DNA of 15,968 bases from the IMG/VR virus record IMGVR_UViG_3300045988_077461; one strand, given 5' to 3'. The stretch's first letter is position 1. The number at the start of each line of letters is the position of its first letter. Positions 144 through 15,968 of the stretch are shown here, in pieces. Under the pieces are notes generated by a model that was given only the letters and a program-made list of their open reading frames with translations, searched no databases and was not told the origin of the DNA. The DNA is from a virus. The position numbers and the translations under genes were made by a program.

Positions 144-599
144 ATGATTAAATACAGACTACATAACATCACAGATTTTGGAATACAACTCCATGACTTC
201 TATACTGAAAATTCACTAAACAATTACATAGCCTTATTTGTAGACCCGCCATATTGGGTTGAAAATTTAGAAACACATGAAAATGTGTATACAGACTTTG
301 ACGGTCATACAGAAACTCATTTATGTAACGAAAATATGGTAGTAGTTACATTAAATAAACTAGACGATTTAAATGTTTCACGTGAAACAGTACACGAATC
401 TGAAATAGACTGGATAAAAAGGCATATACAAGCAGAAGAAAAAGAACCATACACCAAATTAGAAAAAATATCCTCTTTCTTAGCAATCTTATCAGTCATA
501 ATAATGGCAACCTTTTTGCTATATCTTTTCTTATCTTCTGTATCATTTATAGCAGAACATTTTTCAGAGTTCACATGGAAAGTATTTAATATTTTATAA
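144..599 (+). CDS. Hypothetical early protein with a C-terminal transmembrane anchor (151 aa), ITR-L copy
   Basis: AAGGAGG RBS at about 128-134. The hydrophobic stretch SSFLAILSVIIMATFLLYLFLSSVSFI lies near the C-terminus. It is the first gene after the terminal promoter. I recognise no family. Confidence 0.6.
   Translation: MIKYRLHNITDFGIQLHDFYTENSLNNYIALFVDPPYWVENLETHENVYTDFDGHTETHLCNENMVVVTLNKLDDLNVSRETVHESEIDWIKRHIQAEEKEPYTKLEKISSFLAILSVIIMATFLLYLFLSSVSFIAEHFSEFTWKVFNIL
374..389. promoter_or_regulatory. 16-bp palindromic box TGTTTCACGTGAAACA inside the first ITR gene (left copy)
   Basis: Perfect copy of the palindrome that also occurs at 9091-9106, 10405-10420, 10586-10601 and 11665-11680. 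Here it encodes part of N-V-S-R-E-T-V. Confidence 0.6.
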
Positions 600-2338: not shown

Positions 2339-3178
2339 TTATAATTTTAACGCTGTTTTGGCGTTACTGTCAAATGTATAAGCACTTAGTGCTTTTGCTT
2401 CAAAAGCTGTGACAGTCAGTAATAATGCATCAAACTCTCTCGCTGTGATAGGGTTGTCAAAGTGTAACTCTGCAAGCTGATTGATAACATCTTGATAAAA
2501 TACATACTCCCCAGTAAACGGACTATGCATATATAAGTTGCTATCTACTCTGAATTTTTTTGCCCCGTATAAGTCAAACTCTGTACAATTAATTGATAAA
2601 CCATCAAACTCCGTACAAGTTAAATTCAACGAGTCAAATTCATTACAAGTCAAAGCATAATAACGTAGATTATCATACATATCTGCTAACGCTTGGTTCA
2701 AGCTTGTTCTATAACCTCTTACAGGGTTCAACACTTCCATATTATTTGGTACATAGTCATTGATATAATCATAGAGTTTTTTCACCTCTGTATCAATATG
2801 CGCTCTTGTCTCAGCGTTCAAGTCATATACCAAAATATTCAATGTACTAATTTTATCAAGTAATTGAGTTTGAACTCTATTGATTTTTTCATCAAGTTCC
2901 GTGTCTTTAGCGTTCATATCTTCACGGATATTTTTATCCACCTCTGTAATATGGTTATAGATATCAGTGTTAAGTCCATCGACATATGCTTTTAACTCTG
3001 CCACTTTTTCATCAGTGTACTGTTGATATGCATTTGTAAAACTGTTGATTGCGTCAATGCACTCATTTACTTTATAGCCGATATAACATAAACATTCATA
3101 ATAACTCTGTTTATTGCTATACACGCTTGGAACATCACAGCAAAGTAAAGGAAATAAAGGTTTTATATCTCCTGCCAT
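2339..3178 (-). CDS. Coiled-coil structural protein with (L/I)TxxEFD decapeptide repeats (279 aa); probable tail appendage or fibre component
   Basis: The ORF track starts at a GTG (3187) that abuts the RBS. The ATG at 3178 sits 6 nt after AAGGAGGTG and is the likelier start. The central segment is heptad-like. The C-terminal half carries six 10-aa repeats: ALTCNEFDSL, NLTCTEFDGL, SINCTEFDLY, then PITAREFDAL, LLTVTAFEAK, ALSAYTFDSN. Confidence 0.5.
   Translation of the reverse strand: MAGDIKPLFPLLCCDVPSVYSNKQSYYECLCYIGYKVNECIDAINSFTNAYQQYTDEKVAELKAYVDGLNTDIYNHITEVDKNIREDMNAKDTELDEKINRVQTQLLDKISTLNILVYDLNAETRAHIDTEVKKLYDYINDYVPNNMEVLNPVRGYRTSLNQALADMYDNLRYYALTCNEFDSLNLTCTEFDGLSINCTEFDLYGAKKFRVDSNLYMHSPFTGEYVFYQDVINQLAELHFDNPITAREFDALLLTVTAFEAKALSAYTFDSNAKTALKL
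2573..2656. repeat. Three diverged 30-bp tandem repeats inside the 279-aa gene
   Basis: Units GTCAAACTCTGTACAATTAATTGATAAACC (2573-2602), ATCAAACTCCGTACAAGTTAAATTCAACGA (2603-2632) and GTCAAATTCATTACAAGTCAAAGC (2633-2656). They encode the first cluster of xTCxEFDxL decapeptides. Confidence 0.75.
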
Positions 3179-3193
3179 ATATCTCACCTCCTT

Positions 3194-3940
3194 TCACCAA
3201 ACTTTTAGAAACAAATCTCGACAAGCTTCTACAAGTTCTCGATTGATATTCTGTATTTGCTCGCGATATTCTTCAATTGCTTCACTTGTTGATTTTCCTC
3301 TTAATCCTATCTCTTTCGTGTCTCTGTCTCTTTTGCTGTCTTTGTTGTCGTTACCTGTATGGTTATTGTTTGCGGTTGTTGTAGTGTTATTGACAGTCTC
3401 GCCCCTATTCATAGAGCTTGCATAGTCTTGCGTGGCTACGGTAACTTGCGGGTTGTCGCTGTCAATATTTTGATAGTTTTGGTTGTTTTTTACCTCGCTG
3501 TTTCCTGTATCTGTTGCTTTAGTCGTTGTTTTTTCGTTTCCTTTTTCTGCTTCTGTGATTGTTATATTTACATTTGTAAAAGGGTTGTCATTTTGAATTG
3601 CGTTATACAATTTTGTATAATACGGTGTCAATTCATGCATTTTTGCCATGAATGCAGTTTTCCACATACCCAATGTTTCAAAACCTATATAATTATTCCA
3701 GTATCTAAGTAAAAAATATGTTTTAAAAGTATACATATCTTTTCTATATTCTGAGTAAAAAGGAAAATCAAAGTCAAAAAATTTATCCTGTGTTTTATCA
3801 ATAATTATTTGCACAGATAAGTCCATGCTCCATAGTTCTTGGGGTATAATAAAGCTTTCACAAATTTCTTTAACAGTTGTTGTATATTTACTCAATTTCG
3901 TCACCCTCTTTCCCTTTTTGCATGTACTTGTCAGGTACAT
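3194..3940 (-). CDS. Putative lower collar protein (phi29 gp11 position), 233-248 aa
   Basis: Immediately downstream of the portal gene, as gp11 is in phi29. The start is uncertain. The ATG at 3940 overlaps the portal gene by 53 nt and has a weak RBS. A TTG at 3895 follows GAGGGTG (3901-3907) and overlaps the portal stop codon (ATTGAGTAA), which suggests translational coupling. The protein contains an Asn/Thr-rich low-complexity segment (NNTTTTANNNHTGNDNKDSKRDRD). Confidence 0.5.
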   Translation of the reverse strand: MYLTSTCKKGKRVTKLSKYTTTVKEICESFIIPQELWSMDLSVQIIIDKTQDKFFDFDFPFYSEYRKDMYTFKTYFLLRYWNNYIGFETLGMWKTAFMAKMHELTPYYTKLYNAIQNDNPFTNVNITITEAEKGNEKTTTKATDTGNSEVKNNQNYQNIDSDNPQVTVATQDYASSMNRGETVNNTTTTANNNHTGNDNKDSKRDRDTKEIGLRGKSTSEAIEEYREQIQNINRELVEACRDLFLKVW

Positions 3941-4787: not shown

Positions 4788-4802
4788 TTATATCCACCTC
4801 CC

Positions 4803-6419
4803 TTATTCGTTGGATAAACTATAATTCCCGATGTCATCAGTATGCCACAAAGTCACTCCGTTATCAAATATATTTCTTAATTTTTTTAATTGGTCTAAGT
4901 CGATATTACCAGTAAAACCGCAATGTGATGTTTTTACATAATTCCAGTATGACCGAGAATGTAAGTATGGGGTTGTTATTTTATTAATAGGATAACCGAA
5001 CTGTTCAAAAAAACTATCAGCCATTTCTGCAAATTGTCTTTTGCATGACATTTCGTAGAAATCAACGCCACACTCTTTGATACCTGTCAGAACATTTTCT
5101 GATAACGCTTTACCATGCGTCACACCAGCGTTTCTCGCTCTGTCTGTCTGATTGGCTAACATACCAAGCGCGTCCCAAAAAGCATTTGTTGTTTTACCAA
5201 GTCCGTTAATACCTCCCTGTAAACTACCACCTGCCAATCCTGCTATAGCTGAACCTGTTCCTATGGTAGCATCAACAGCGGTATGAACTTGCGATAGAGC
5301 AATAGAGCTTTTGTTCTGTGCTAACCATGCTCGATAAGTGTCAGAAGAAAAGGAACACATCGGAAAAGAAGAGTTAATGAGTGCTTCGCTCATTAGTCCA
5401 TGTCCTAACACTTCACGAGTCTTATAATTTTTCGGTGCTGTCAAGACTTGCGGTAACGTTGCTATTGTTCCATAGCTATCGAACTCAAGGGACTTATCTC
5501 GGTTATAGCTATACTCATATCTATAGATATGAGTGTTGCCTTGATTATTGTCAGCCAAACAAAATAACCAAGGGTAAGAGTATAACTTTTTATTTTTCGG
5601 TTTGTACCCCTCGAAAACGTTGTCAGAAATTTGCATACTTGTTATTTTCGGTTTAATTTCTTTTCCACCTAAAGCAAGTGTGCATAATTTAGGCGACATA
5701 AATAACCCTATGACTGCATCTTGCGCGCCTTGGTTATTATAGTCTTCCAATAATGTGTTAATTCCTTTTAGTCCATCTTCTGTAGTAACATCATAATGCC
5801 CTATACTACCCCAGCAATAGACCCCATTTTCCACACGACCCTCAAACCAGCTTTGTTCAGATGTTCCTCGTGTTACAAAAGCGCAACACTCCGTTGGTGT
5901 CAAGTCCAATTTTTTGTGCCGTGATACGATTGTTTCGCCTGTTTCGATGTTTACAGGGGTTAGATTTACCCCTATTCCGTCATCACTTCTTGGAATATGA
6001 TGATACTCTACAAAGCAAGGTTTTATATTTGCATCGTAAAAGTTATTTTGAAAAACATCTAAAGAAAAATTAATCCTAGTTGTTTTTTCTGATAACCATT
6101 CGATGGAATCAATAAAGCAAAATACCCACTCATTAGATATGCCACTATTCTGAAAAGCTAAATAATTTAGATTAAGTGCTTTCATTTCTGTGAATGGTAC
6201 GCGGATATCATAATTTCCTACTTTAATTGGTGCAAGGTGTGACAAGTCAACTCCACTGATATGTTTTCGGTAAGTCTCTAAATGATTTAATAAGTTCTCT
6301 TTTGAGTTGTACAGTCTAACGTGTTCATATTCATCAGACCATGGCACTCCACTGTATAATCTCAATTTTGTTTCGGGGTTGCGTGGCGCAACCCCTCCTT
6401 GAGATGGTAAATTTATCAT
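4803..6419 (-). CDS. Tail knob / distal tail tube protein (phi29 gp9 position), 538 aa
   Basis: A large ORF between the capsid and portal genes, exactly where gp9 (599 aa) lies in phi29. RBS AGAGG. The assignment is by synteny and size only. Confidence 0.55.
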   Translation of the reverse strand: MINLPSQGGVAPRNPETKLRLYSGVPWSDEYEHVRLYNSKENLLNHLETYRKHISGVDLSHLAPIKVGNYDIRVPFTEMKALNLNYLAFQNSGISNEWVFCFIDSIEWLSEKTTRINFSLDVFQNNFYDANIKPCFVEYHHIPRSDDGIGVNLTPVNIETGETIVSRHKKLDLTPTECCAFVTRGTSEQSWFEGRVENGVYCWGSIGHYDVTTEDGLKGINTLLEDYNNQGAQDAVIGLFMSPKLCTLALGGKEIKPKITSMQISDNVFEGYKPKNKKLYSYPWLFCLADNNQGNTHIYRYEYSYNRDKSLEFDSYGTIATLPQVLTAPKNYKTREVLGHGLMSEALINSSFPMCSFSSDTYRAWLAQNKSSIALSQVHTAVDATIGTGSAIAGLAGGSLQGGINGLGKTTNAFWDALGMLANQTDRARNAGVTHGKALSENVLTGIKECGVDFYEMSCKRQFAEMADSFFEQFGYPINKITTPYLHSRSYWNYVKTSHCGFTGNIDLDQLKKLRNIFDNGVTLWHTDDIGNYSLSNE

Positions 6420-8084: not shown

Positions 8085-9069
8085 GTGACATTTTTGTTTT
8101 TCTTGAATGAGGGTGAATTGGATATGGAGATAACATCTGTAAATATGCGTACCATTTTAATGCGTTCTTTTTACGCTCCTCTTCTTTTTCCACTCCTGCA
8201 CGCTCGAAATTTTTTAGAAATACTGACGCTAGATAATCGGGTTCTTTTGTGGACTTCCGAAACTCTTCCCATGATATCGGATATTTCGTTGTCTCAATCC
8301 ACTGTCCACTGCTAACGGTTTCTTCATCAAGCCAAACACATTGGTAGTACCCGTCTGTAATATCATACCCGTGAGCGTTCGCCCAGTCTGTGTAGACTGT
8401 TGCTGGTGTCCACTGAACTAACCCGTAACCACCGTTATAGTTTCCCTCTTTTAGCGACTGCCATAACTCGGGGTTAATATTGGACTCTATCTCCATGTTT
8501 CCTAACATTCCAGCTATTGAATTTAATGTGAAATCTTTGAAGAACATTGTGCTATAGAATACATAAGCGTTATTCTTCATTTCATCTTCTGTAAGATAAC
8601 GGTTTCCATGAACCCATTCAAGGGTCATTCCTGCACTATCGCCATAGCGATATATTTTAGTCCAAGCTGACGGTTTCGCTATATATGTATTAATGCTGAC
8701 CTGTTCGGTCAATGGATAACGCCCACTGTGTGCGCCCATTGTAATACCTCCGTTACCTGCTCCTGCCCCTTGATACACAAATTCAGTGTGACCGCTACGC
8801 CATACCACGTCCCCAGCTTGCCACGCTTCGTTAATATTTATTTCTTTGAACCCTGCCTGTAATAGATATCCCTCCTCTGTCCTTGTCGTAAACCATGGGT
8901 TCACTGAGAAAAATCCTGCTTCTGTCAATGCTTTTGAGATAAAAGAACTGCAATCATAATAAGTAATACCATTCACAGTCTGACCTCTTCTGTATTGCTG
9001 TGAATAACCAATATTAGGAGCATTGCACGCATTGACCGCCCACTGATACGCTACATTGATATTTGGCAT
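8062..9069 (-). CDS. Tail-associated cell-wall hydrolase, phi29 gp13-like: N-terminal NlpC/P60-type cysteine peptidase plus C-terminal phage tail lysozyme domain (335 aa)
   Basis: The C-terminal half [10 protein letters not shown]...[26 protein letters not shown]...[21 protein letters not shown]...[23 protein letters not shown] closely parallels the phi29 gp13 N-terminal domain ([26 protein letters not shown]...[21 protein letters not shown]...[23 protein letters not shown]). The N-terminal half has [11 protein letters not shown] ... GDVVW..GHTEFVY, typical of NlpC/P60 Cys/His peptidases. Confidence 0.82.
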   Translation of the reverse strand: [335 protein letters not shown]

Positions 9070-9086: not shown

Positions 9087-9124
9087 AAAATGTTTCACGT
9101 GAAACATTTTTGTTCCACGTGAAT
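9087..9124. promoter_or_regulatory. Palindromic box pair between the endolysin and tail-lysin genes
   Basis: A perfect 24-bp palindrome AAAATGTTTCACGTGAAACATTTT (9087-9110) is followed by a degenerate copy TGTTCCACGTGAAT (9111-9124). The CACGTG centres are 20 bp apart. On the minus strand the perfect box ends one nt before the AAGGAGG RBS of the 335-aa gene. Confidence 0.6.
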
Positions 9125-9129
9125 AAAAA

Positions 9130-10119
9130 CTAAATCATGTATAACATATCTTTCGCGTAAACGAATTCAGTCCCACAAGCGCGTGCCAATCCTCTTCCAA
9201 ATGTTCCAGGGCATTCGACACCGTTCGGGTCTTTTCCCTGTAACAGGCATAAGATTTCAAGAGCTGTAACAAGATACTGCGTTTCTCCACGCTTTACATA
9301 ATGCTTTCCTGCTTTTGCTAAAGTCTTTCTCCCTACAATACCATCCTCCACAAGTGTTTTACCGTAGTCTGCGTTCATGGCTCTTTGTACTACGCGAACT
9401 GCCATTCTTTTCGTATTTCTGCCTGCAATACCATCAACTGCAATTTTAACGCCTGTGAAATTGATAGCGTGCTGTTGTCCTAGAGCGATTAATTCATTTC
9501 TGAGTTTTTCATGTGTAGTGGCAGTCTGTGGTGTAGTAGGTGTAGAACTTGAAACTGCATAGTCTTTGTATACATGATTCACATCACATCTACCGTTAAT
9601 ACCATCAACAGACCCATTGCTGGAATACTGCCATATGTCCACATTATCTACGCCTAACACATTAGAGTAACGAGCAATCCATAAATCATAGCCCCATGTT
9701 TCACCAATGTAATTCTCGAACCATGATTTACTAGCATATATCCCAGCCTTATATCCATTCGTTAACATAGCGTCACAAAACCGCTTTGCGTTGTGCTTTG
9801 CGACTCCTTGCGTTCCTTTTTCTTCACTGTCGAAAAATACAGGTAGATTAGGCGTGTGACCTTGTAACAATCTAAGACAGTGTCTAATTTCACCCTCAAT
9901 TTTTGAAGTTGTTTTTGCGTAGGAATAGAAATATACACCGTATGGAATACCCAATCTTTCACATTCACTTACATTTCGATTCCATTGTTTATCGTCCTGT
10001 GATGTCATATCCTGCCCATAACCGCAACGAATGATAACATAGTCCACGGCATTTTTTAACCGTTCAAAATCAATAACCCCGTTGTGATAAGAAATGTCTA
10101 CTGCTTTTTTTACTGTCAT
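9130..10119 (-). CDS. Endolysin: GH25 muramidase plus C-terminal peptidoglycan-binding (PG_binding_1-like) repeats (329 aa)
   Basis: GH25 landmarks are VDISYHNGVIDF, YVIIRCGYG, GVYFYSY, FFDSEE, GIYASKSW, LWIARY and IWQYSSNGSVDGINGRCDVN. The C-terminus has two DGIxGRxT motifs (VDGIAGRNTKRMAVRVVQRAM and EDGIVGRKTLAKA). Confidence 0.9.
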   Translation of the reverse strand: MTVKKAVDISYHNGVIDFERLKNAVDYVIIRCGYGQDMTSQDDKQWNRNVSECERLGIPYGVYFYSYAKTTSKIEGEIRHCLRLLQGHTPNLPVFFDSEEKGTQGVAKHNAKRFCDAMLTNGYKAGIYASKSWFENYIGETWGYDLWIARYSNVLGVDNVDIWQYSSNGSVDGINGRCDVNHVYKDYAVSSSTPTTPQTATTHEKLRNELIALGQQHAINFTGVKIAVDGIAGRNTKRMAVRVVQRAMNADYGKTLVEDGIVGRKTLAKAGKHYVKRGETQYLVTALEILCLLQGKDPNGVECPGTFGRGLARACGTEFVYAKDMLYMI

Positions 10120-10121
10120 GT

Positions 10122-10346
10122 TTAACCCTCTCTTTTCTGTTCAAATGTATCGCATATTCTTTGAAGTGCAAGCGTGTTGTTGTTCAAAGCTTCTGTGATA
10201 TCTTCCATTTCTTTTTTGTGTGCTTCATTTAGATTGTCTACGCGTACGTCGTTTTTATCATCTCTGTATTTAACATACCACATTGACGCAACCGCAACAA
10301 CTGTAGGTAGACCCAATGTGTTAATGGCTGTCATTACTTCCTGCAT
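10122..10346 (-). CDS. Holin-like protein, BhlA/UviB-type architecture (74 aa)
   Basis: A single N-terminal TM helix (LGLPTVVAVASMWYV) is followed by a charged coiled-coil tail. The gene lies immediately upstream of the endolysin, with stop and start 2 nt apart. RBS AAGGAGGTG. Confidence 0.6.
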   Translation of the reverse strand: MQEVMTAINTLGLPTVVAVASMWYVKYRDDKNDVRVDNLNEAHKKEMEDITEALNNNTLALQRICDTFEQKREG

Positions 10347-10367
10347 ATTATCACCTCCTTTTTATAT

Positions 10368-10396
10368 ATCATAGCACAAATAAAACTGCTTGTAAA
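10368..10396 (-). promoter_or_regulatory. Candidate late (lysis and morphogenesis) promoter
   Basis: On the minus strand: TTTACA (10391-10396), 17 nt ending in TGc, then TATGAT (10368-10373), about 20 nt before the holin RBS. Two palindromic boxes lie just upstream, centred near -50 and -66. Confidence 0.55.
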
Positions 10397-10551
10397 TAAA
10401 AAATGTTTCACGTGAAACATTATCCACGTGAAACATATTGTACGTTACAAAATAATCGAATCAAAGGGAACGCAACGCCAAAAATTGATATCAGACTACT
10501 TGTCTATGTGCGCGTATATCAATTACAATGCTCGTATTATTTTGGGTACAT
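10397..10551 (-). ncRNA. Candidate non-coding RNA (~150 nt); possible packaging RNA (pRNA)
   Basis: This is the only long ORF-free gap in the unique region (10375-10600). A consensus promoter fires into it. Positions 10532-10550 can pair with 10439-10459: a 12-bp helix with one bulged A, plus a 5-bp extension. That helix encloses about 72 nt containing a 9-bp hairpin (10483-10491 with 10516-10524). The 3' end would be the palindrome at 10402-10421 followed by TTTTTATTT. It is adjacent to the packaging ATPase gene. Confidence 0.45.
10402..10436. promoter_or_regulatory. Palindromic box pair upstream of the late promoter; it may also act as the hairpin terminator of the candidate ncRNA
   Basis: A perfect 20-bp palindrome AATGTTTCACGTGAAACATT (10402-10421) plus a half-degenerate copy CCACGTGAAACAT (10424-10436). 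The CACGTG centres are 16 bp apart. Confidence 0.6.
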
Positions 10552-10555
10552 TGTA

Positions 10556-10584
10556 ATTATAGCATGCATAATTTAAAATGTCAA
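10556..10584 (-). promoter_or_regulatory. Consensus sigma-A promoter driving the ORF-free region
   Basis: On the minus strand: TTGACA (10579-10584), an exact 17-nt spacer ending in TGc, then TATAAT (10556-10561). The -35 overlaps the end of the palindromic box 10583-10602 by 2 nt. Confidence 0.7.
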
Positions 10585-10602
10585 TGTTTCACGTGAAACA
10601 TT
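10583..10602. promoter_or_regulatory. Palindromic box overlapping the ATPase stop codon and the -35 of the ncRNA promoter
   Basis: AATGTTTCACGTGAAACATT, a perfect 20-bp palindrome. Confidence 0.6.
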
Positions 10603-11647
10603 AAAAAGATATGACATCAAATATCATATTCTTACATTCTAAATTTTCAAATAAAAGTAAACCTCTATTAAAATATTCTCGTAGCATCGTTACAATATAA
10701 TGAGTTGAATTTACACGGATAGCTGTGTTATCGATAACGTCAGTTTTTGTAAAGCATATCCTTACTGGAAAACTGTCGTCAGCACCAGTTGATATATACA
10801 TATAAGTATCGTATCTTCTCACGTTATACATTTTTTCATTAAATCTAATTGTACAAATATATCGCGATTGGCCACTAGGTTTACCTATTAAGCAATCATT
10901 GTCATTCAAATATTTATTTTCACTAGCGTATTCATTATAACTTGCACCTTGAAATGCCCTAGCTATACCACTTTCTTTATATGCTGTTGAAGCATTTTCA
11001 TTATAAGTTCGTTCAAATACCCAACCGTCACCGCGTAAAAATTTAGTGTTATGTTTTAACATTTTATTTATACCAAAAACGTTATAATAAGGGTTCAATA
11101 ATGACACGGTATTAGAAGCCATATACAGCATAACTCTTCTATGCTGCTTCCCATGACCTGCGCTAATAGTTGTGAGCAATGATAAAAGCTTATTTACTTC
11201 GTTTGGCAAATATACGTTATCTTCGTCTTGATATTCGTCAAAAAATACAGAACGAATATTTACAAATAATCCACGCATTTTTTTATATTTTCTTGCGACA
11301 GATAAAGATAAACAATATCCGCATGGTTCTTCATTCAGATATAATTGTATCAATGACCCATTCATCAAACTCTTTTCAGTCATTACATAACCATCAAATT
11401 TTTCAGATATATCTCCAAAATACGTGTCAGCACAGTTTTTCATATCAATAACATTTCGATATAAATATATAAATTGATTTTCGGGTCTATATTTATCTTT
11501 TAAAAAATCAGAAACTTGTCTACACTTAATGGAATAGCTTTTGCCTGCCGTTCTATTACCATCTACAATATAAATATCCGGGATTTTGCCGTTTTTATCT
11601 TTCAATGTTAATAATCTATCGCAATGATAATAACCATCATTTTCCAT
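10601..11647 (-). CDS. DNA encapsidation (packaging) ATPase, phi29 gp16-like (348 aa)
   Basis: Walker A is IVDGNRTAGKSYSIK (phi29 FVIGARGIGKSYAMK), followed by NQFIYLYRN (EQFIYVRRY). Walker B and downstream read VFFDEYQDEDNVYLPNEVNKLLSLL...MASNTVSLLNPYY (phi29 IVFDEFIREKDNSNYIPNEVSALLNLM...LSNAVSVVNPYF). RBS AAGGAGG. Confidence 0.92.
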   Translation of the reverse strand: MENDGYYHCDRLLTLKDKNGKIPDIYIVDGNRTAGKSYSIKCRQVSDFLKDKYRPENQFIYLYRNVIDMKNCADTYFGDISEKFDGYVMTEKSLMNGSLIQLYLNEEPCGYCLSLSVARKYKKMRGLFVNIRSVFFDEYQDEDNVYLPNEVNKLLSLLTTISAGHGKQHRRVMLYMASNTVSLLNPYYNVFGINKMLKHNTKFLRGDGWVFERTYNENASTAYKESGIARAFQGASYNEYASENKYLNDNDCLIGKPSGQSRYICTIRFNEKMYNVRRYDTYMYISTGADDSFPVRICFTKTDVIDNTAIRVNSTHYIVTMLREYFNRGLLLFENLECKNMIFDVISF

Positions 11648-11663
11648 TTTTAAAACCTCCTTA

Positions 11664-11681
11664 ATGTTTCACGTGAAACAT
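11664..11681. promoter_or_regulatory. Palindromic box between the early terminator and the ATPase RBS
   Basis: ATGTTTCACGTGAAACAT, a perfect 18-bp palindrome. On the minus strand it ends two nt before the AAGGAGG RBS of the ATPase gene. Confidence 0.6.
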
Positions 11682-11690
11682 GTATTTTTT

Positions 11691-11720
11691 AAAAAAAAGG
11701 AGTGGCGTATAGCCACCCCC
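11691..11720 (-). terminator. Rho-independent terminator ending the early (replication) operon
   Basis: On the minus strand GGGGTGGC-TATAC-GCCACTCC forms an 8-bp stem with one mismatch and is followed by a run of 8 T (11691-11698). It lies 44 nt downstream of the SSB-like gene. Confidence 0.75.
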
Positions 11721-11763
11721 TTTAGAAGAAGAGAACATAAAATGGTATTCTCACGGCATCATG

Positions 11764-12114
11764 TTATAAATTTGATACGTCTAAGGTGCAATTGATATAA
11801 TCGCGTCCTGCTTTTGTCTTTCCACTAATTTTAATGATAGAAAATTTTTCGCCCTCCATCACATTTTCAATGTCTTTCAAAGACTGTCTAAAAGTTGCAG
11901 ACTGTCCGGAATATACTTTCTTCTCCGGTGTAATAATGCTTAGAATTTCCTGTATGTCTCCATTATCTTTGATATCATTAAAAATGATATAGCCATCAAC
12001 TGGGATTGATTCTCCGTCATCGATATTTTTTAATGGCTCAATGTCTGGTGCTGTAGTCATAAGATATTTTTCCACCTTTGTGAACTCTCTACTCATTTCT
12101 TTAATTTCTATCAT
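11764..12114 (-). CDS. Putative single-stranded DNA-binding protein, phi29 p5-like (116 aa)
   Basis: The C-terminal half EILSIITPEKKVYSGQSATFRQSLKDIENVMEGEKFSIIKISGKTKAGRDYINCTLDV parallels phi29 p5 as I recall it ([31 protein letters not shown]...FKVKVVQGTSSKGNVFFSLQLSL). The size matches and the gene sits in the early operon. RBS AGGAGG. Confidence 0.45.
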   Translation of the reverse strand: MIEIKEMSREFTKVEKYLMTTAPDIEPLKNIDDGESIPVDGYIIFNDIKDNGDIQEILSIITPEKKVYSGQSATFRQSLKDIENVMEGEKFSIIKISGKTKAGRDYINCTLDVSNL

Positions 12115-12138
12115 AATAATTTCCTCCTATTTTTCCTG

Positions 12139-12438
12139 CTAATCTTCCTTTTTCATTTCCTGCAATTCTGCTTCAGTAACAATTTTTTCGCTCTTGACAT
12201 CTGAATTGAGTAAGAACTGTTCATCAGTCATGACACGTTTTTCCAGTTTAAATTTGATGTCTAAAATTGAAACAATGTCACCTTTATACTGCTTTTCAAT
12301 CAAGATTTCCGCTTTTTCTCTTGTCTTACAATTTGCGAGTTTATCGTCAAAGCAATCTTTCTTGATTTCACCTGTCTCCTTGTCTTTGTAGATTCTTTCC
12401 ACAGATACTTCTGCCGTTACTAATGTCCTTGTAAACAT
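12139..12438 (-). CDS. Putative dsDNA-binding, histone-like replication protein, phi29 p6-like (99 aa)
   Basis: The real start is probably the internal ATG at 12438, preceded by AAAAGGAGGAAAAAAG. The upstream 30 codons of the tracked ORF read through promoter and RBS sequence. The pattern RTLVTAEVSV...GEI...TREKAEILIEKQYKGDIVSILDI...MTDEQFL with an acidic tail resembles phi29 p6 (REITKTTVNV...GEV...TMEQAQWRMKRKYKGEPVQVVSV...LPVEKFL, acidic tail). This rests on memory only. Confidence 0.4.
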   Translation of the reverse strand: MFTRTLVTAEVSVERIYKDKETGEIKKDCFDDKLANCKTREKAEILIEKQYKGDIVSILDIKFKLEKRVMTDEQFLLNSDVKSEKIVTEAELQEMKKED

Positions 12439-12550: not shown

Positions 12551-14431
12551 TTATAATTTTTTATCTTTTTGTTCGTGTATATTGAAGTCTTTATTTCTTA
12601 ATACAATACCGCCTTTTACTCGCTCTGCTTTTAAGTTACAAGTGTTCATACTAAGACCAGTGGATAACTCAGATATGTCTCGTCCATCTTCGATAAATTT
12701 TCTTTTAGCTTGACTACTCATTCCACAGGCTTTTATATCAAGATAAGGCTCGCATGGTATATGATTCTCTTCAATAATATGCTCTGCATAAGTTTTCTGT
12801 CTTTCATAATACGCAAAATCAAATGTACTTTCGCATTTCCAACAACAAAAATTAGTAGAATGCTCCACAACCTTTTCTGCTTTTTCTGTACCTATAATAT
12901 GTATCGAGTCCGTATCAGCGTAACAAAATCGGTCATAATTTGCCATAGCATGACGTATAGTAAAATTCATAGCATAAGAAGTAATAGCACTACCAATTGG
13001 AATATACCCGACTTTCTTTTCATGTTCCTCATGTAGTGTAAATCTTATAATACCATCATCATCAAGATAAGGCTCTTTGTAAGATGAGTTATCCGACATA
13101 GCAAATTTTCCATAGAGGTTATTTAAAAATAGTTTCGCTTTTTGTCTTTTAAAACCTTTTGATGTTCTTTTTTCTTCTCCGTATTTGTCTATATATTCAT
13201 CAAAAAATCCTTGTCTAGCATAGAACCATATGTAATCATAAATTACCAAATCATAAATATCATAAGTTTCTTGGAACAACGCCCAGTCAGTGCAAGTCAT
13301 AGTTAGAGTGACATTAGTATCATGCATTTGTCCGTCAATATCACGGTAATATCGATAATATTCGCCTTTATACCGTACATTAGAAGTATATAAATTTTCA
13401 TTTGATTTGTATAAAGCACTATTCCTAATATGTAACCATGGAAATGCCCCTGCTTTTAACTGAAATCTACAATTGAAACGAATAAAAAAATATTTATTAG
13501 TAGACCTTATCAATTCATCGGGTGGAGACCCTCTGTGATATTCTCCATGACCGAACGGGTATTTATTCCCACTAATGCTATGCATCATAGACGGGTACAA
13601 AGAGTTTACATCATATACTAATCCCTCCCCCACTACCATATGCGCGTAACGTGGATTGACGTAGCACCAGCCTCCGTGATATGATTTGTGAATATAGTCC
13701 CACTGATTCCATACACCTGTGATAGATTCGTCTATATAATCTTCTCTAATATCGGGAAATAACTTATCATATTGTTTAGCATCATAAAAACCTTTAAATT
13801 CTGATAGACAGCATGAACCTATTGTTAGTTTATCATGATTTTCATTGAACATCATTTCAAGTGCTTCTTTTAATACTAATACATCATTTTCAATATACTT
13901 TTTCTCATTTTCAGATATATCACAATAAGCGTATCTCTCGCCCTCATATTCCATGTCTAGCTTTTGGTGCTTTGTGCCAAATGATTTTCCGATATTTTTT
14001 AATGAAGAGGGCATAAGCTTTAAAGAGTTTCGGATTTCTAAAAAAGTCTTGTTCCATTTTAATTTAATCCAATACCAGGAACCCATATCAGATATACAAG
14101 TTTGAAATTCTTTTGATTTCATTTCTTTATCTTTACAATGTACCCATTCCCAACCCTCTTTTAATAGAAAATCTACTATAAAAGAACCGTCAAATGCAAG
14201 ATTATGAAAGTATAATATATTGTTACCTCTCATTGTCAAAAATCTATTTAAAAAATCTCTTATCGAATGAGTTATTGTTACTGTTTCGGTTTCGTCATAT
14301 AAGGCCACGTAAGCTCCACTCCACACTTCTGTACTATCTTGCTTTTTACCTTTTTCTTGCTCCACCTTTTCACCCCATACGGTAGTCTCAAAATCGCACG
14401 CCCAAAAAGTAATACTCTTTTTACGTGGCAT
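12551..14431 (-). CDS. Protein-primed family-B DNA polymerase, phi29 gp2-like (626 aa)
   Basis: All hallmark motifs can be read. ExoI is FWACDFETT. ExoII is YFHNLAFDGSFIV. ExoIII is YIENDVLVLKEAL. Motif A is VYDVNSLYPSMM. Motif B is KAKLFLNNLYGKFA. Motif C is CYADTDSIHI. The KxY motif is ERQKTYAEH. The RBS and start codon lie inside ITR-R. Confidence 0.96.
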   Translation of the reverse strand: MPRKKSITFWACDFETTVWGEKVEQEKGKKQDSTEVWSGAYVALYDETETVTITHSIRDFLNRFLTMRGNNILYFHNLAFDGSFIVDFLLKEGWEWVHCKDKEMKSKEFQTCISDMGSWYWIKLKWNKTFLEIRNSLKLMPSSLKNIGKSFGTKHQKLDMEYEGERYAYCDISENEKKYIENDVLVLKEALEMMFNENHDKLTIGSCCLSEFKGFYDAKQYDKLFPDIREDYIDESITGVWNQWDYIHKSYHGGWCYVNPRYAHMVVGEGLVYDVNSLYPSMMHSISGNKYPFGHGEYHRGSPPDELIRSTNKYFFIRFNCRFQLKAGAFPWLHIRNSALYKSNENLYTSNVRYKGEYYRYYRDIDGQMHDTNVTLTMTCTDWALFQETYDIYDLVIYDYIWFYARQGFFDEYIDKYGEEKRTSKGFKRQKAKLFLNNLYGKFAMSDNSSYKEPYLDDDGIIRFTLHEEHEKKVGYIPIGSAITSYAMNFTIRHAMANYDRFCYADTDSIHIIGTEKAEKVVEHSTNFCCWKCESTFDFAYYERQKTYAEHIIEENHIPCEPYLDIKACGMSSQAKRKFIEDGRDISELSTGLSMNTCNLKAERVKGGIVLRNKDFNIHEQKDKKL

Positions 14432-14447
14432 TTATTCTCACCTCTTT

Positions 14448-15158
14448 TTATTCGTTCTCAATAACAATATCTTGCTCTTGCAAAAATTCTTGAAAATCTT
14501 CTGTTGTGCTAATAACGCCCATTCTATGCAAAATGTTCCAAAATACAGCGTCAACCGTAGCTTTGTCCATGTATGGCTCTGTTGGAAATGCTTCGCTTTC
14601 TTTTGTGTATGTGTAAGCAAATAACGCCCTTTCTTTCTCCGACGCATTAGATAATATAGCGTCTGTTTTTTGCCTTAAATAATCAGTTGTTTTTGGCACA
14701 AAACTCTCTAAAGAATCATACCACGAATCAATAATTGCTTCGTAATCTAATACAGGTATTGCTATATTGACTTTAATACCGTTCTTTTGTAGTGCTTTTA
14801 ATTCCTTAATATCAGTATAACCTTGCATTCTAGCATATTCTTGTTCCTGTGGTGTCAGTTTTATAAAAACTCTGTTTCTTTCAAGTGTATGTTTACGTCC
14901 ATACTCTTTAGAGCTTATAACCTCACCTGTAAGCATATCAACAACCGACGCATTTTTTCGTATTTCTTTTGCATTCTGTTTTTTAATTCTATTAATAGAA
15001 GATTGCGTAGGGTTTTTTACTCGCTTGATTGCCTTTACCTGTACCCCTTGTTTTTGTTGATTTCTGACACGAGATAAATATTTATTATATTCTTTAGAAT
15101 ATTCTTTCTGTATAAGAAAAGCTTTTGTTTTTTTCTTTTTTATACGTTTATTAGCCAT
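14448..15158 (-). CDS. Putative terminal (DNA-priming) protein (236 aa), ITR-R copy, directly upstream of the polymerase
   Basis: Identical to 811..1521. Its stop codon lies 16 nt before the polymerase ATG, in the same operon. Confidence 0.45.
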   Translation of the reverse strand: MANKRIKKKKTKAFLIQKEYSKEYNKYLSRVRNQQKQGVQVKAIKRVKNPTQSSINRIKKQNAKEIRKNASVVDMLTGEVISSKEYGRKHTLERNRVFIKLTPQEQEYARMQGYTDIKELKALQKNGIKVNIAIPVLDYEAIIDSWYDSLESFVPKTTDYLRQKTDAILSNASEKERALFAYTYTKESEAFPTEPYMDKATVDAVFWNILHRMGVISTTEDFQEFLQEQDIVIENE

Positions 15159-15161
15159 CTT

Positions 15162-15356
15162 TTAATCCACATCCTTTTCCACTTTTCTTAATAGCAAGCC
15201 ATGTGGTACGCGCGTGTATTCGATACTATCACCCGGATGAATGTCTAAATCTCGAATTGCTTCTTTTGGTATCATGACGCGGGCGGTGTAGCCGCCTGTG
15301 CCACCTTTCGTAAACATTACTTTATAGCGCAATAATTTATTTGTTAATTTTGCCAT
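15162..15356 (-). CDS. AbrB/SpoVT-like small DNA-binding protein (64 aa), ITR-R copy
   Basis: Identical to 613..807. Confidence 0.55.
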   Translation of the reverse strand: MAKLTNKLLRYKVMFTKGGTGGYTARVMIPKEAIRDLDIHPGDSIEYTRVPHGLLLRKVEKDVD

Positions 15357-15369
15357 GTTTTTTTCCTCC

Positions 15370-15825
15370 TTATAAAATATTAAATACTTTCCATGTGAAC
15401 TCTGAAAAATGTTCTGCTATAAATGATACAGAAGATAAGAAAAGATATAGCAAAAAGGTTGCCATTATTATGACTGATAAGATTGCTAAGAAAGAGGATA
15501 TTTTTTCTAATTTGGTGTATGGTTCTTTTTCTTCTGCTTGTATATGCCTTTTTATCCAGTCTATTTCAGATTCGTGTACTGTTTCACGTGAAACATTTAA
15601 ATCGTCTAGTTTATTTAATGTAACTACTACCATATTTTCGTTACATAAATGAGTTTCTGTATGACCGTCAAAGTCTGTATACACATTTTCATGTGTTTCT
15701 AAATTTTCAACCCAATATGGCGGGTCTACAAATAAGGCTATGTAATTGTTTAGTGAATTTTCAGTATAGAAGTCATGGAGTTGTATTCCAAAATCTGTGA
15801 TGTTATGTAGTCTGTATTTAATCAT
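15370..15825 (-). CDS. Hypothetical tail-anchored membrane early protein (151 aa), ITR-R copy
   Basis: Identical to 144..599. Confidence 0.6.
   Translation of the reverse strand: MIKYRLHNITDFGIQLHDFYTENSLNNYIALFVDPPYWVENLETHENVYTDFDGHTETHLCNENMVVVTLNKLDDLNVSRETVHESEIDWIKRHIQAEEKEPYTKLEKISSFLAILSVIIMATFLLYLFLSSVSFIAEHFSEFTWKVFNIL
15580..15595. promoter_or_regulatory. 16-bp palindromic box inside the first ITR gene (right copy)
   Basis: Mirror of 374..389: TGTTTCACGTGAAACA. Confidence 0.6.
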
Positions 15826-15873
15826 TTATTTTCTTCCTCCTTATTTTTACTAGGTTTCCTTGTTTCTATAATT

Positions 15874-15902
15874 ATAATACCACGAGCCGTATTATTTGTC
15901 AA
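15874..15902 (-). promoter_or_regulatory. Terminal early promoter, sigma-A type (right copy), heading the operon that runs into the DNA polymerase gene
   Basis: Mirror image of 67..95: -35 at 15897-15902 and -10 at 15874-15879 on the minus strand. Confidence 0.7.
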
Positions 15903-15968
15903 GTATTTTTTTCGTGCTTTTTAACCAAATGGGGGACGTGGTCTCATCGGGAATAACGTAAGCCCTCT

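Follow-up and report, generated by a model that had tools for sequence, protein, structure and literature searches.

The 16-bp palindrome TGTTTCACGTGAAACA, which recurs along the 15,968-bp window (the whole stretch of viral DNA analysed here), is letter-for-letter identical to the consensus chromosomal parS, the site of ParB/Spo0J, and we consider it probable that its copies are host-type parS sites, i.e., a centromere sequence for the ParB/Spo0J of the host. The parS consensus was taken from the literature, including papers on ParB/parS that, among the matches listed, give the exact 16-mer; this 16-mer has been published as the parS consensus and served to locate parS in gut Clostridia, in which 1-10 parS sites and, in all those examined, ParABS homologues were reported. 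A parS site is a 16-bp inverted repeat fitting tGTTNCACGTGAAACa, and the window holds six exact TGTTTCACGTGAAACA matches to it. When all plausible ORFs were scanned with Pfam and PHROGs, neither a ParBc domain nor a partition gene was found in the window; therefore, the ~16-kb linear DNA would be bound by a host protein and, given that the 16-mer equals consensus parS, the phage most likely borrows host ParB/Spo0J. Both the binding of ParB and the function of the sites are what we infer from the sequence. The preliminary description of this DNA had taken the palindrome for a phage-specific operator, a view that does not fit a 16-mer which is the consensus bacterial parS and recurs in other phages.

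The window represents a complete phi29-like genome from human gut metagenomes. It encodes a type B DNA polymerase, the gp16 ATPase, the Phi29 major capsid protein, the connector and the gp9 tail knob, with domain matches to DNA_pol_B_2, Podovirus_Gp16, Phi29_MCP, Phage_connector and phi29_gp9_C. The genome is linear, its ITR arms (1-1551 and 14418-15968; 1551 bp) being 100% complementary, and by gene content it is a protein-primed phi29-like phage. The whole window gave no match to GenBank phages in Megablast, and relatives were recovered via protein comparison; at 90% identity the capsid-protein cluster of the phage has more than 2000 members. The boxes and the elements around them are arranged as follows (no strand is assigned to the boxes):

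374..389, exact parS-type site in the left ITR, within the 151-aa first gene, where it codes for NVSRET
9091..9106, exact parS-type site between the endolysin stop (9130) and the RBS of the tail-lysin gene
9094..9123, minus strand, terminator-like hairpin formed downstream of the lysis cassette by the box pair 9091-9106 and 9111-9126 (13 bp, with a T-rich tail)
9111..9126, degenerate box TGTTCCACGTGAATAA, 2 mismatches from TGTTNCACGTGAAACA
10403..10436, minus strand, terminator-like hairpin of 14 bp followed by TTTTTATTTA, with a half-box and parS as its arms
10404..10419, exact parS-type site, doubling as the 3' arm of the small-RNA terminator
10420..10435, degenerate box TTATCCACGTGAAACA, partner of 10404..10419
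10437..10549, minus strand, structured small RNA of ~113 nt, a candidate packaging RNA with a parS-type site on either side, itself outside the parS set
10556..10584, minus strand, sigma-70-type promoter, the top match in the genome (TTGACA, 17 nt, TATAAT, with TG)
10585..10600, exact parS-type site between the packaging-ATPase stop codon (10601-10603) and the -35 hexamer of the promoter, touching both
11665..11680, exact parS-type site between the GC-rich intrinsic terminator and the RBS of the ATPase gene
11691..11724, minus strand, GC-rich intrinsic terminator at the end of the early operon (-18.1 kcal/mol, followed by T8)
15580..15595, exact parS-type site in the right ITR, second copy of site 374 from the ITR duplication

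Pattern search of the window thus recovered the six exact copies described earlier; four of the original coordinates were right, while those given as 10405-10420 and 10586-10601 were one base too high. The expected degenerate partners are also present (9111-9126 and 10420-10435), each with 3 mismatches to the 16-mer and both 2 mismatches away from the N-containing parS consensus. Several sites extend, as had been noted, into longer palindromes of 20-25 bp, with AATGTTTCACGTGAAACATT found at 9089-9108, 10402-10421 and 10583-10602. Chance does not account for the copy number: with up to 3 mismatches allowed, 0.16 matches are expected and 8 observed, a number attained in none of 200 dinucleotide-preserving shuffles. 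All eight CACGTG hexamers of the window fall within the boxes. Copies 374 and 15580 should be regarded as one site, doubled because the ITR is perfect; as a result, one perfect site lies 374 nt from each genome end. The four perfect sites of the central region, like the two degenerate ones, are all intergenic, although non-coding DNA makes up only ~6.5% of the genome (a count from the ORF map), hence their placement is non-random. An origin of the motif in a mobile element was unsupported, as flank conservation ends with the palindrome, and so was an origin as a restriction site, since CACGTG is not significantly depleted elsewhere.

The surroundings of individual sites largely agree with the preliminary description. 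Sites 11665 and 9091 lie directly 5' of AAGGAGG RBSs (those of the ATPase and tail-lysin genes, respectively), the ITR copies, which had been placed within the early transcripts, follow the ITR promoter (67-95) by ~270 nt, and a pair of sites is found upstream of the candidate late promoter. The site described as overlapping the -35 of a consensus promoter in fact adjoins it: this promoter, which scores 12/12 against the consensus, has its -35 hexamer at 10584..10579 on the minus strand, directly downstream of the site at 10585-10600. At one end, TTAT(C/T)CACG, the two degenerate boxes look like a DnaA box. Relatives do not keep this likeness (their spacer reads GACA, AAAA or AACA), and we therefore take it as chance.

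The motif is under purifying selection as a DNA sequence. About 80 close relatives retain the sites at matching positions. Conservation over up to 79 relatives is 97-99.6% for the 16-bp core and 64-88% for its flanks. Core and flank values are 97.4% and 87.0% at site 9091 (68 relatives), 99.6% and 87.8% at site 10404 (78 relatives; nearly invariant in alignment A1), 99.2% and 87.7% at site 10585 (close relatives), and 97.2% and 81.1% at site 11665 (76 relatives). The difference is largest at site 374 (98.8% versus 63.9%; 49 relatives), where third codon positions are 99.3% conserved within the motif and 62.4% in its flanks. In CS229P1/P2, in phi29 and in all but two of 83 close relatives (81), a site likewise abuts the ATPase stop, and the number of exact sites per genome ranges from 2 to 6, with a mean of 4.3 (63 near-complete relatives plus the window). 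Moreover, the GC-rich terminator near 11665, an element of structure alone, varies among relatives, whereas the parS-type core is far better conserved. Conservation of the core above both its flanks and this terminator, together with that of synonymous positions, upholds the earlier suggestion of a sequence-specific element for a dimeric DNA-binding protein, beyond a mere hairpin.

These data bear directly on the possibility that the palindromes act purely at the RNA level, as hairpins (terminators, processing sites or 3' stabilisers) whose DNA sequence is read by no protein. The central sites are indeed all intergenic, each located between a stop codon and the RBS that follows it on the transcribed strand, and have a matching layout in phiCP7R, Voltaire and L085; the tandem pairs form 13-14-bp stems followed by T runs. 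However, structure tolerates compensatory change, yet the exact 16-mer is kept across motif-carrying phages whose DNA polymerases share just 24-47% identity; the parS arm is invariant, while the partner half-box varies uncompensated (in relatives, the 10420..10435 box consists of a conserved ATGTTTCACGTG half-box and a variable spacer of 3-6 nt), and in the ITR copy, which lies in a gene, synonymous positions are conserved. The single sites also fold weakly, with RNA hairpins of -3.9 to -9.4 kcal/mol compared with -18.1 for the true terminator, and sites 11665, 10585 and 374 have no proper U run. We therefore regard a purely RNA-level role as very improbable. The two tandem pairs alone qualify as intrinsic terminators (10436..10403 and 9123..9094), and the predicted folds suggest that 10403-10436 and 9094-9123 probably also act as such on the transcribed strand. 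Hence, the proposed terminator/roadblock function gains partial support from these two tandem sites with their 13-14-bp hairpin and T run, and an RNA-level role fits them as a second job, not as the sole explanation of the motif.

The 16-mer or its TGTTNCACGTGAAACA variant is found in phi29, B103, the C. perfringens phage phiCP7R and C. symbiosum phages, as well as in an Enterococcus phage and a Glutamicibacter phage. Eight of 17 surveyed phi29-like genomes carry at least one exact site, with ~3e-5 exact sites expected per genome by our own estimate, and at least 25 of 120 IMG/VR contigs from the motif scan are phi29-like. In a sister clade of similar gene content, 69 of 80 contigs carry neither the motif nor any other repeated palindrome; thus, the motif seems to be accessory and is unlikely to represent the core early/late switch. 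The preliminary description, which had proposed such a switch, had itself named absence from close relatives with unchanged regulation as grounds for abandoning it.

In its full form, that proposal was that a phage-encoded dimeric regulator, the 64-aa AbrB/MazE-like protein, binds the palindrome as a phage-specific operator and thereby switches early to late transcription. The 64-aa AbrB-like ITR protein has a true DNA-binding fold (PF04014, E 7e-7), its gene co-occurs with a high parS load in the clade and in the 59%-identity relatives L085 and L155, and the contact of one site with the -35 of the top promoter match, as well as the pair upstream of the candidate late promoter, would suit an operator. 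Nevertheless, AbrB-like homologues are absent from CS229P1/P2, MT835854, MT835904, phi29 and phiCP7R, all of which carry parS, and the motif is therefore not confined to genomes with the cognate phage regulator. Since motif-carrying phages exist without the AbrB-like gene, this protein was rejected as the reader of the boxes on co-occurrence. The identity of the sequence with consensus host parS, the sister-clade genomes without the motif and the two copies within a coding region, an awkward place for an operator, also argue against the operator, to which we give hardly any credence.

The phi29 p4 sites, to which the boxes had been likened, likewise recur near the promoters of a phi29-like phage and bind protein (as predicted for the boxes). 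Unlike the boxes, however, they have a phage protein as their reader, occur only in the A2c-A3 promoter region and are unrelated in sequence; domain scans detected no p4 homologue among the window proteins. The right counterpart in phi29 appears to be its parS/Spo0J sites. As described in PMC2731898, Meijer et al. (2005) reported five parS sites in phi29 and the involvement of Spo0J in moving the genome into the prespore, the parS sites of phi29 and Nf allowing host Spo0J to be used for spore entrapment. Like phi29, whose family it shares as judged from gene content, the window phage carries several host-consensus parS copies on a small, linear, protein-primed genome that lacks ParB, and one of the four exact TGTTCCACGTGAAACA sites of phi29 begins right after the gene 16 stop, as the 10585-10600 site directly follows the packaging-ATPase stop codon. 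The two phages also differ. The sites of the window are perfectly palindromic, in contrast to TGTTCCACGTGAAACA, and denser (8 in 16 kb compared with 4-5 in 19 kb); they are intergenic except for the ITR copies, whereas three of the four exact phi29 sites lie inside genes; two are part of terminator hairpins, and one is located in each 1.5-kb ITR. Moreover, no Spo0A boxes accompany them. TGTCGAA occurs twice in the window (1.9 expected), both times inside the endolysin gene, and relaxed TGNCGAA seven times (6.75 expected) with none at the main promoters, while in the same test phi29 shows boxes at 4992, 5024, 5131, 19164 and 19226, beside its promoters. Hence, of the features of phi29-type exploitation, the window displays multiple parS sites and lacks the other half of that strategy, Spo0A boxes at early/late promoters, by which the lytic cycle is suppressed.

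Compared with chromosomal parS/ParB centromeres, the 16-bp sequence is identical and the setting differs. On chromosomes, parS sites are grouped around the oriC of a closed circular replicon, with kilobases between them, whereas those of the window lie on a linear viral genome, partly in tandem 16-20 bp apart, and their ParB would come from another genome. Centromere sites allow plasmid-prophages such as P1, N15 and similar phages to be inherited without integration. Such phages supply ParA and ParB themselves, together with an unrelated parS of their own, while the window phage encodes neither protein and copies the site of its host.

If the boxes are host-type parS sites, a dimer of host ParB (Spo0J in Firmicutes) would nucleate on them and give the linear phage genome a centromere-like behaviour; six perfect and two half-degenerate sites would turn the whole genome into a ParB loading platform. 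An infecting or silenced genome could thereby be held and moved together with the chromosomal origin region and, as shown for phi29, reach the forespore, or else pass to daughter cells in a carrier state. Since parS is also present in phi29-like phages of non-spore-forming hosts (Enterococcus phage Athos and Glutamicibacter phage Voltaire), its role must go beyond spore entrapment. In vitro, ParB accumulates solely on closed DNA, thus a linear genome may retain it poorly; DNA-bound protein stops ParB sliding, and the terminal protein or other roadblocks capping the ends may offset such a loss.

Alternatively, ParB may read the sites for purposes other than segregation, either because the phage acts as a ParB sink or because bound ParB forms a transcription roadblock. 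In the former case, replicating phage genomes, present in hundreds and each bearing 8 sites, would titrate ParB/Spo0J from the host origin and thereby interfere with chromosome segregation, with the loading of SMC or with the onset of sporulation; in the latter, phage transcription would be tied to the state of the host cell. The site density, unusually high for a 16-kb genome, the location of sites at operon junctions and against a promoter, the parS of phages with non-sporulating hosts and the lack of Spo0A boxes are in line with this explanation, as are the arrest of ParB sliding by DNA-bound protein and the occupancy by ParB complexes of DNA flanking their sites. The sole experimental precedent, phi29, favours segregation, and we consider the non-segregation explanation rather unlikely.

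On a broader and distinctly speculative level, small protein-primed phages may have gained and lost copies of the host centromere repeatedly, as a lifestyle module widespread among the phages of gut Clostridia and of C. perfringens and present in some of those of Enterococcus and Actinobacteria. In the clade of the window phage, host ParB-CTP clamps loaded at the 8 sites of a terminal-protein-capped 16-kb genome might act beyond segregation, in that they might coat and silence all of its DNA or gate transcription at the operon junctions, and a formally 'virulent' phage without lysogeny genes could thus attain a ParB-dependent episomal carrier or spore-borne state. Should host ParB bind the sites, an abundant human-gut phage lineage would ride the host chromosome into spores or daughter cells, which would bear on the persistence of 'lytic' gut phages, their person-to-person passage with spore-forming Clostridia and their escape from prophage detection; a mechanism known from a single Bacillus model phage would then also apply to gut phages that are uncultured. 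The load of host-consensus parS could also serve as a simple genomic marker for predicting lifestyle and for narrowing the host to ParB-bearing bacteria, and the parS-rich clade and its parS-free sister clade offer a natural comparison for experiments.

While phi29 has a Bacillus host, that of the window phage is an uncultured gut bacterium, probably a member of the Clostridia. An ATPase scan of a genome collection yielded one binned contig in a Clostridia MAG, and relatives of the phage infect C. symbiosum; a weak hint, towards Lachnospiraceae/Blautia, comes from the nearest cellular endolysin homologues, which are prophage genes, one of them from Blautia. With regard to the candidate packaging RNA at 10437..10549, an Rfam search in E-value mode returned two chance-level hits and no match to a pRNA family; its fold has a z-score of -4.2, and compensatory changes occur at several pairs among 76 relatives.

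A pattern search of the window, a complete linear phi29-like genome of 15,968 bases, confirmed six perfect copies of the palindrome TGTTTCACGTGAAACA, at 374, 9091, 10404, 10585, 11665 and 15580 (two coordinates in the preliminary description were one base too high; the others hold). Two further copies, at 9111 and 10420, carry three mismatches to it; the chance expectation is 0.16 matches, and eight were reached in none of 200 shuffles. The copies at 374 and 15580 are one site doubled by the inverted terminal repeat (ITR), every CACGTG of the genome falls inside these boxes, and none of the four perfect central sites or the two degenerate ones lies within a gene, in a genome whose non-coding share is about 6.5% (counted from the ORF map). 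By sequence, the 16-mer is identical to the chromosomal parS consensus, the nucleation site of ParB (Spo0J in Firmicutes). Among papers containing this exact string, all those listed by a full-text search concern ParB/parS; a review lists it, or the variant tGTTNCACGTGAAACa, for parS in Firmicutes, Actinobacteria and Proteobacteria, and a Hi-C study of gut bacteria located parS with exactly this string, reporting ParABS homologues and 1-10 parS sites in 12 of 12 species studied, among them the Clostridia Enterocloster clostridioformis, Blautia coccoides, Flavonifractor plautii and Clostridium innocuum. Since the motif is a bacterial consensus, the earlier view of it as phage-specific fails.

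All genes except three in the left ITR lie on the minus strand, and they include those for a protein-priming type B DNA polymerase, a gp16-type packaging ATPase, a Phi29-type major capsid protein, a connector, a gp9 tail knob, a lower collar, a GH25 endolysin and a tail lysozyme. The ITRs are perfect, inverted and 1551 bp long (1-1551 and 14418-15968), whereas the repeats of phi29 and Cp-1 measure 6 and 236 bp. Each holds three whole genes, for a 151-aa protein with a hydrophobic segment at its C-terminal end, a 64-aa AbrB/MazE-like protein and a 236-aa protein which, judged only by its position directly upstream of the polymerase, is probably the terminal protein. No GenBank phage matched the window at the nucleotide level; judged by DNA polymerase, its nearest named relatives are phages CS229P1-3 of Clostridium symbiosum, with 46% amino-acid identity, alongside human faecal contigs that carry no annotation, and the phi29 polymerase is 33% identical. 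Human-gut metagenome contigs encode proteins identical to those of the window, and the 90% cluster of the capsid protein has 2055 members. Hints at the host come from the isolation of relatives on C. symbiosum, from a single contig of 13 kb that was binned with an uncultured Clostridia MAG, and from the nearest cellular endolysin homologues (45-50% identity), which belong to prophages on long contigs of gut bacteria, one bearing the name Blautia marasmi.

Pfam and PHROGs scans found no ParB or other partition domain in the window proteins. The AbrB-like protein, previously put forward as the reader of the boxes, has no homologue in CS229P1, CS229P2, MT835854, MT835904, phi29 or phiCP7R, six phages that all carry the motif. 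Together, these results make host ParB the simplest candidate reader.

A protein-guided IMG/VR scan yielded 80 relatives with an ATPase 86-99% identical to that of the window, plus one at 59%. In 63 genomes, namely the window and 62 relatives with near-complete contigs, exact sites number 2-6 per genome (4.3 on average) and fall at the same five positions; one ITR is collapsed in most of these metagenome assemblies. At every position the core is far better conserved than its surroundings:

Aligned identity with the window, site by site (16-bp core; 60-bp flanks)
ITR site: core 98.8%, flanks 63.9%
Site after the endolysin gene: core 97.4%, flanks 87.0%
Site at the small-RNA terminator: core 99.6%, flanks 87.8%
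Site after the ATPase gene: core 99.2%, flanks 87.7%
Site before the ATPase gene: core 97.2%, flanks 81.1%

The ITR copy lies within the fast-evolving 151-aa gene, where the six third-codon positions inside the motif are 99.3% conserved, compared with 62.4% in the flanks, and a GC-rich terminator (11691-11724) varies in the alignments where the cores are conserved. These patterns point to selection on the DNA sequence of the boxes and bear out the proposal that a dimeric DNA-binding protein recognises them by sequence.

Some boxes probably also take part in transcription signals. On the transcribed (minus) strand, box 10404 and an upstream half-box form a 14-bp stem followed by TTTTTATTTA, and the 9091/9111 pair yields a stem of 13 bp whose tail is T-rich; hence, two sites probably double as terminators. 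The first of these hairpins ends a small RNA directly downstream of the packaging-ATPase gene:

10437-10549, minus strand: structured RNA of about 113 nt (promoter 10584..10556, terminator 10403-10436)

Its promoter, the only one in the genome with a 12/12 consensus, follows the 10585-10600 parS without a gap. The RNA has a fold z-score of -4.2 and, among 76 relatives, compensatory changes, for instance at pairs 2-114 (UA to CG in 9) and 19-97 (GC to AU in 19); it has no Rfam match, and is a candidate packaging RNA (pRNA) of the clade. In the same 76 relatives the half-box of the 10404 hairpin varies uncompensated while the parS arm is invariant, which indicates that parS identity, and not the stem alone, is constrained. 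The folds of individual sites are weak (-3.9 to -9.4 kcal/mol, versus -18.1 for the GC-rich terminator), and structure alone cannot explain the family of sites. The ATPase gene is bracketed by parS on both sides. The gene lacks a recognisable promoter of its own: from the GC-rich terminator to the ATPase start codon (region 11648-11763) there is nothing but parS and a ribosome-binding site; given the strong terminator upstream, ATPase expression would depend on read-through.

The boxes are thus most likely host-type parS on a phi29-like gut phage, a kind already known from phi29. According to PMC2731898 (citing Meijer et al. 2005), phi29 has five parS sites, and there is evidence that host Spo0J brings the infecting genome into the prespore by means of them, phi29 promoters being meanwhile silenced via Spo0A boxes. 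Our scan of phi29 found four exact TGTTCCACGTGAAACA sites (10445, 15903, 17243 and 18760), of which 17243 directly follows the stop codon of gene 16 (packaging ATPase), ending at 17242. In the window, site 10585-10600 likewise follows directly on the stop codon of the ATPase gene (10601-10603), as does a parS in CS229P1, CS229P2 and 81 of 83 close relatives, and the sequence TAA-TGTTTCACGTG occurs in all three lineages (window clade, C. symbiosum phages and phi29).

Stop-abutting parS, TAATGTTTCACGTG
10585-10603: window
17240-17258: phi29 (L207)
5780-5798: retrieved genome L001
10525-10543: retrieved genome L005

The ATPases of these lineages are only 27-37% identical, and the shared arrangement is either ancestral or convergent. 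Unlike phi29, whose Spo0A boxes lie beside its promoters in the same test, the window shows no enrichment of Spo0A boxes and none at a promoter, by strict or relaxed pattern.

Exact parS sites recur in other phi29-like phages:

parS sites in 17 named phi29-like genomes
phi29: 4 exact consensus sites
B103: 2 exact
phiCP7R (C. perfringens): 4 exact and 3 one-mismatch, at 5096-5137, 8130-8170, 10233-10248 and 12108-12148
CI55P1: 1 exact
CS229P1, CS229P2: 1 exact each
Enterococcus phage Athos: 1 exact, at 4788
Glutamicibacter phage Voltaire: 2 exact in tandem, at 8742 and 8761
BeachBum, DK1, CI644P6: one-mismatch sites only
PumA2, CPD7, Reje, Cp-1, BadAztec4, RHph_N3_8: no site

The phiCP7R sites are all intergenic and mostly form tandem pairs at a distance of 25-26 bp, shortly before ribosome-binding sites; its genome paper (PMC3362512) does not mention them, and the literature searched contained no description of host-type parS on virulent phages beyond phi29 and Nf. 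An exact 16-mer scan of IMG/VR returned at least 120 contigs, at least 25 of them phi29-like. Among 80 IMG/VR relatives of the CS229P2 ATPase, chosen regardless of motif, 11 carry it (only those closest to CS229P2, with 1-2 sites each), and the other 69 (L235-L303) have neither a site at one mismatch or fewer nor another repeated palindrome. Their gene content is similar, which argues that parS is an accessory element whose load is lineage-specific, gained and lost among such phages. The same 69 genomes argue against the suggested early/late switch, against which absence of the motif from relatives was to count; both the protein reading the boxes and their purpose appear to have been misassigned, host-type parS being the better description.

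The analogy with phi29 has further limits. Athos and Voltaire, which carry exact parS as well, are phi29-like phages of non-sporulating hosts. ParB-CTP in vitro accumulates only on closed DNA or DNA with end roadblocks, so that on a linear genome its retention would depend on the covalent terminal protein or bound proteins; speculatively, the two sites lying 374 nt inside the genome ends may be relevant to this. Since, in addition, Spo0A boxes are not enriched, we consider three readings of function: spore entrapment, carrier-state partition, or a ParB sink/ParB-dependent transcriptional gating. That the boxes are ParB-binding sites under selection is, on sequence grounds, highly probable; the full explanation, including a role in segregation or entrapment, is at best reasonably likely. 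What sets these sites apart is their number, their perfect consensus and strict conservation across an abundant uncultured lineage, the way they are built into terminators and a promoter, and the fact that Spo0A boxes are absent.

Several minor observations complete the picture. Both degenerate boxes (9111-9126 and 10420-10435) end in TTAT(C/T)CACG, resembling a DnaA box (TTATCCACA); the stretch varies in relatives (GACA, AAAA or AACA), and the likeness is probably chance. The Athos site occupies the place expected for the -35 of a TGnTATAAT promoter, and the Voltaire pair is followed by TTTTT, as in a terminator. A 116-aa protein (11764-12114, minus strand) that matches no family exceeds the polymerase in conservation among distant relatives, with 43-62% identity in CS229P and the MT8358xx contigs, and recurs in other parS-rich phi29-like contigs (L091, L105, L191); by its position, it could be an SSB or p6-like DNA-binding protein. 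Dense exact-parS clusters are also present on two contigs that are not phi29-like, L146 (SU10-like portal and terminase; five copies in about 900 bp, 10535-11462) and L106 (five in about 800 bp, 2657-3444); host-type centromere arrays may exist in further types of phage.
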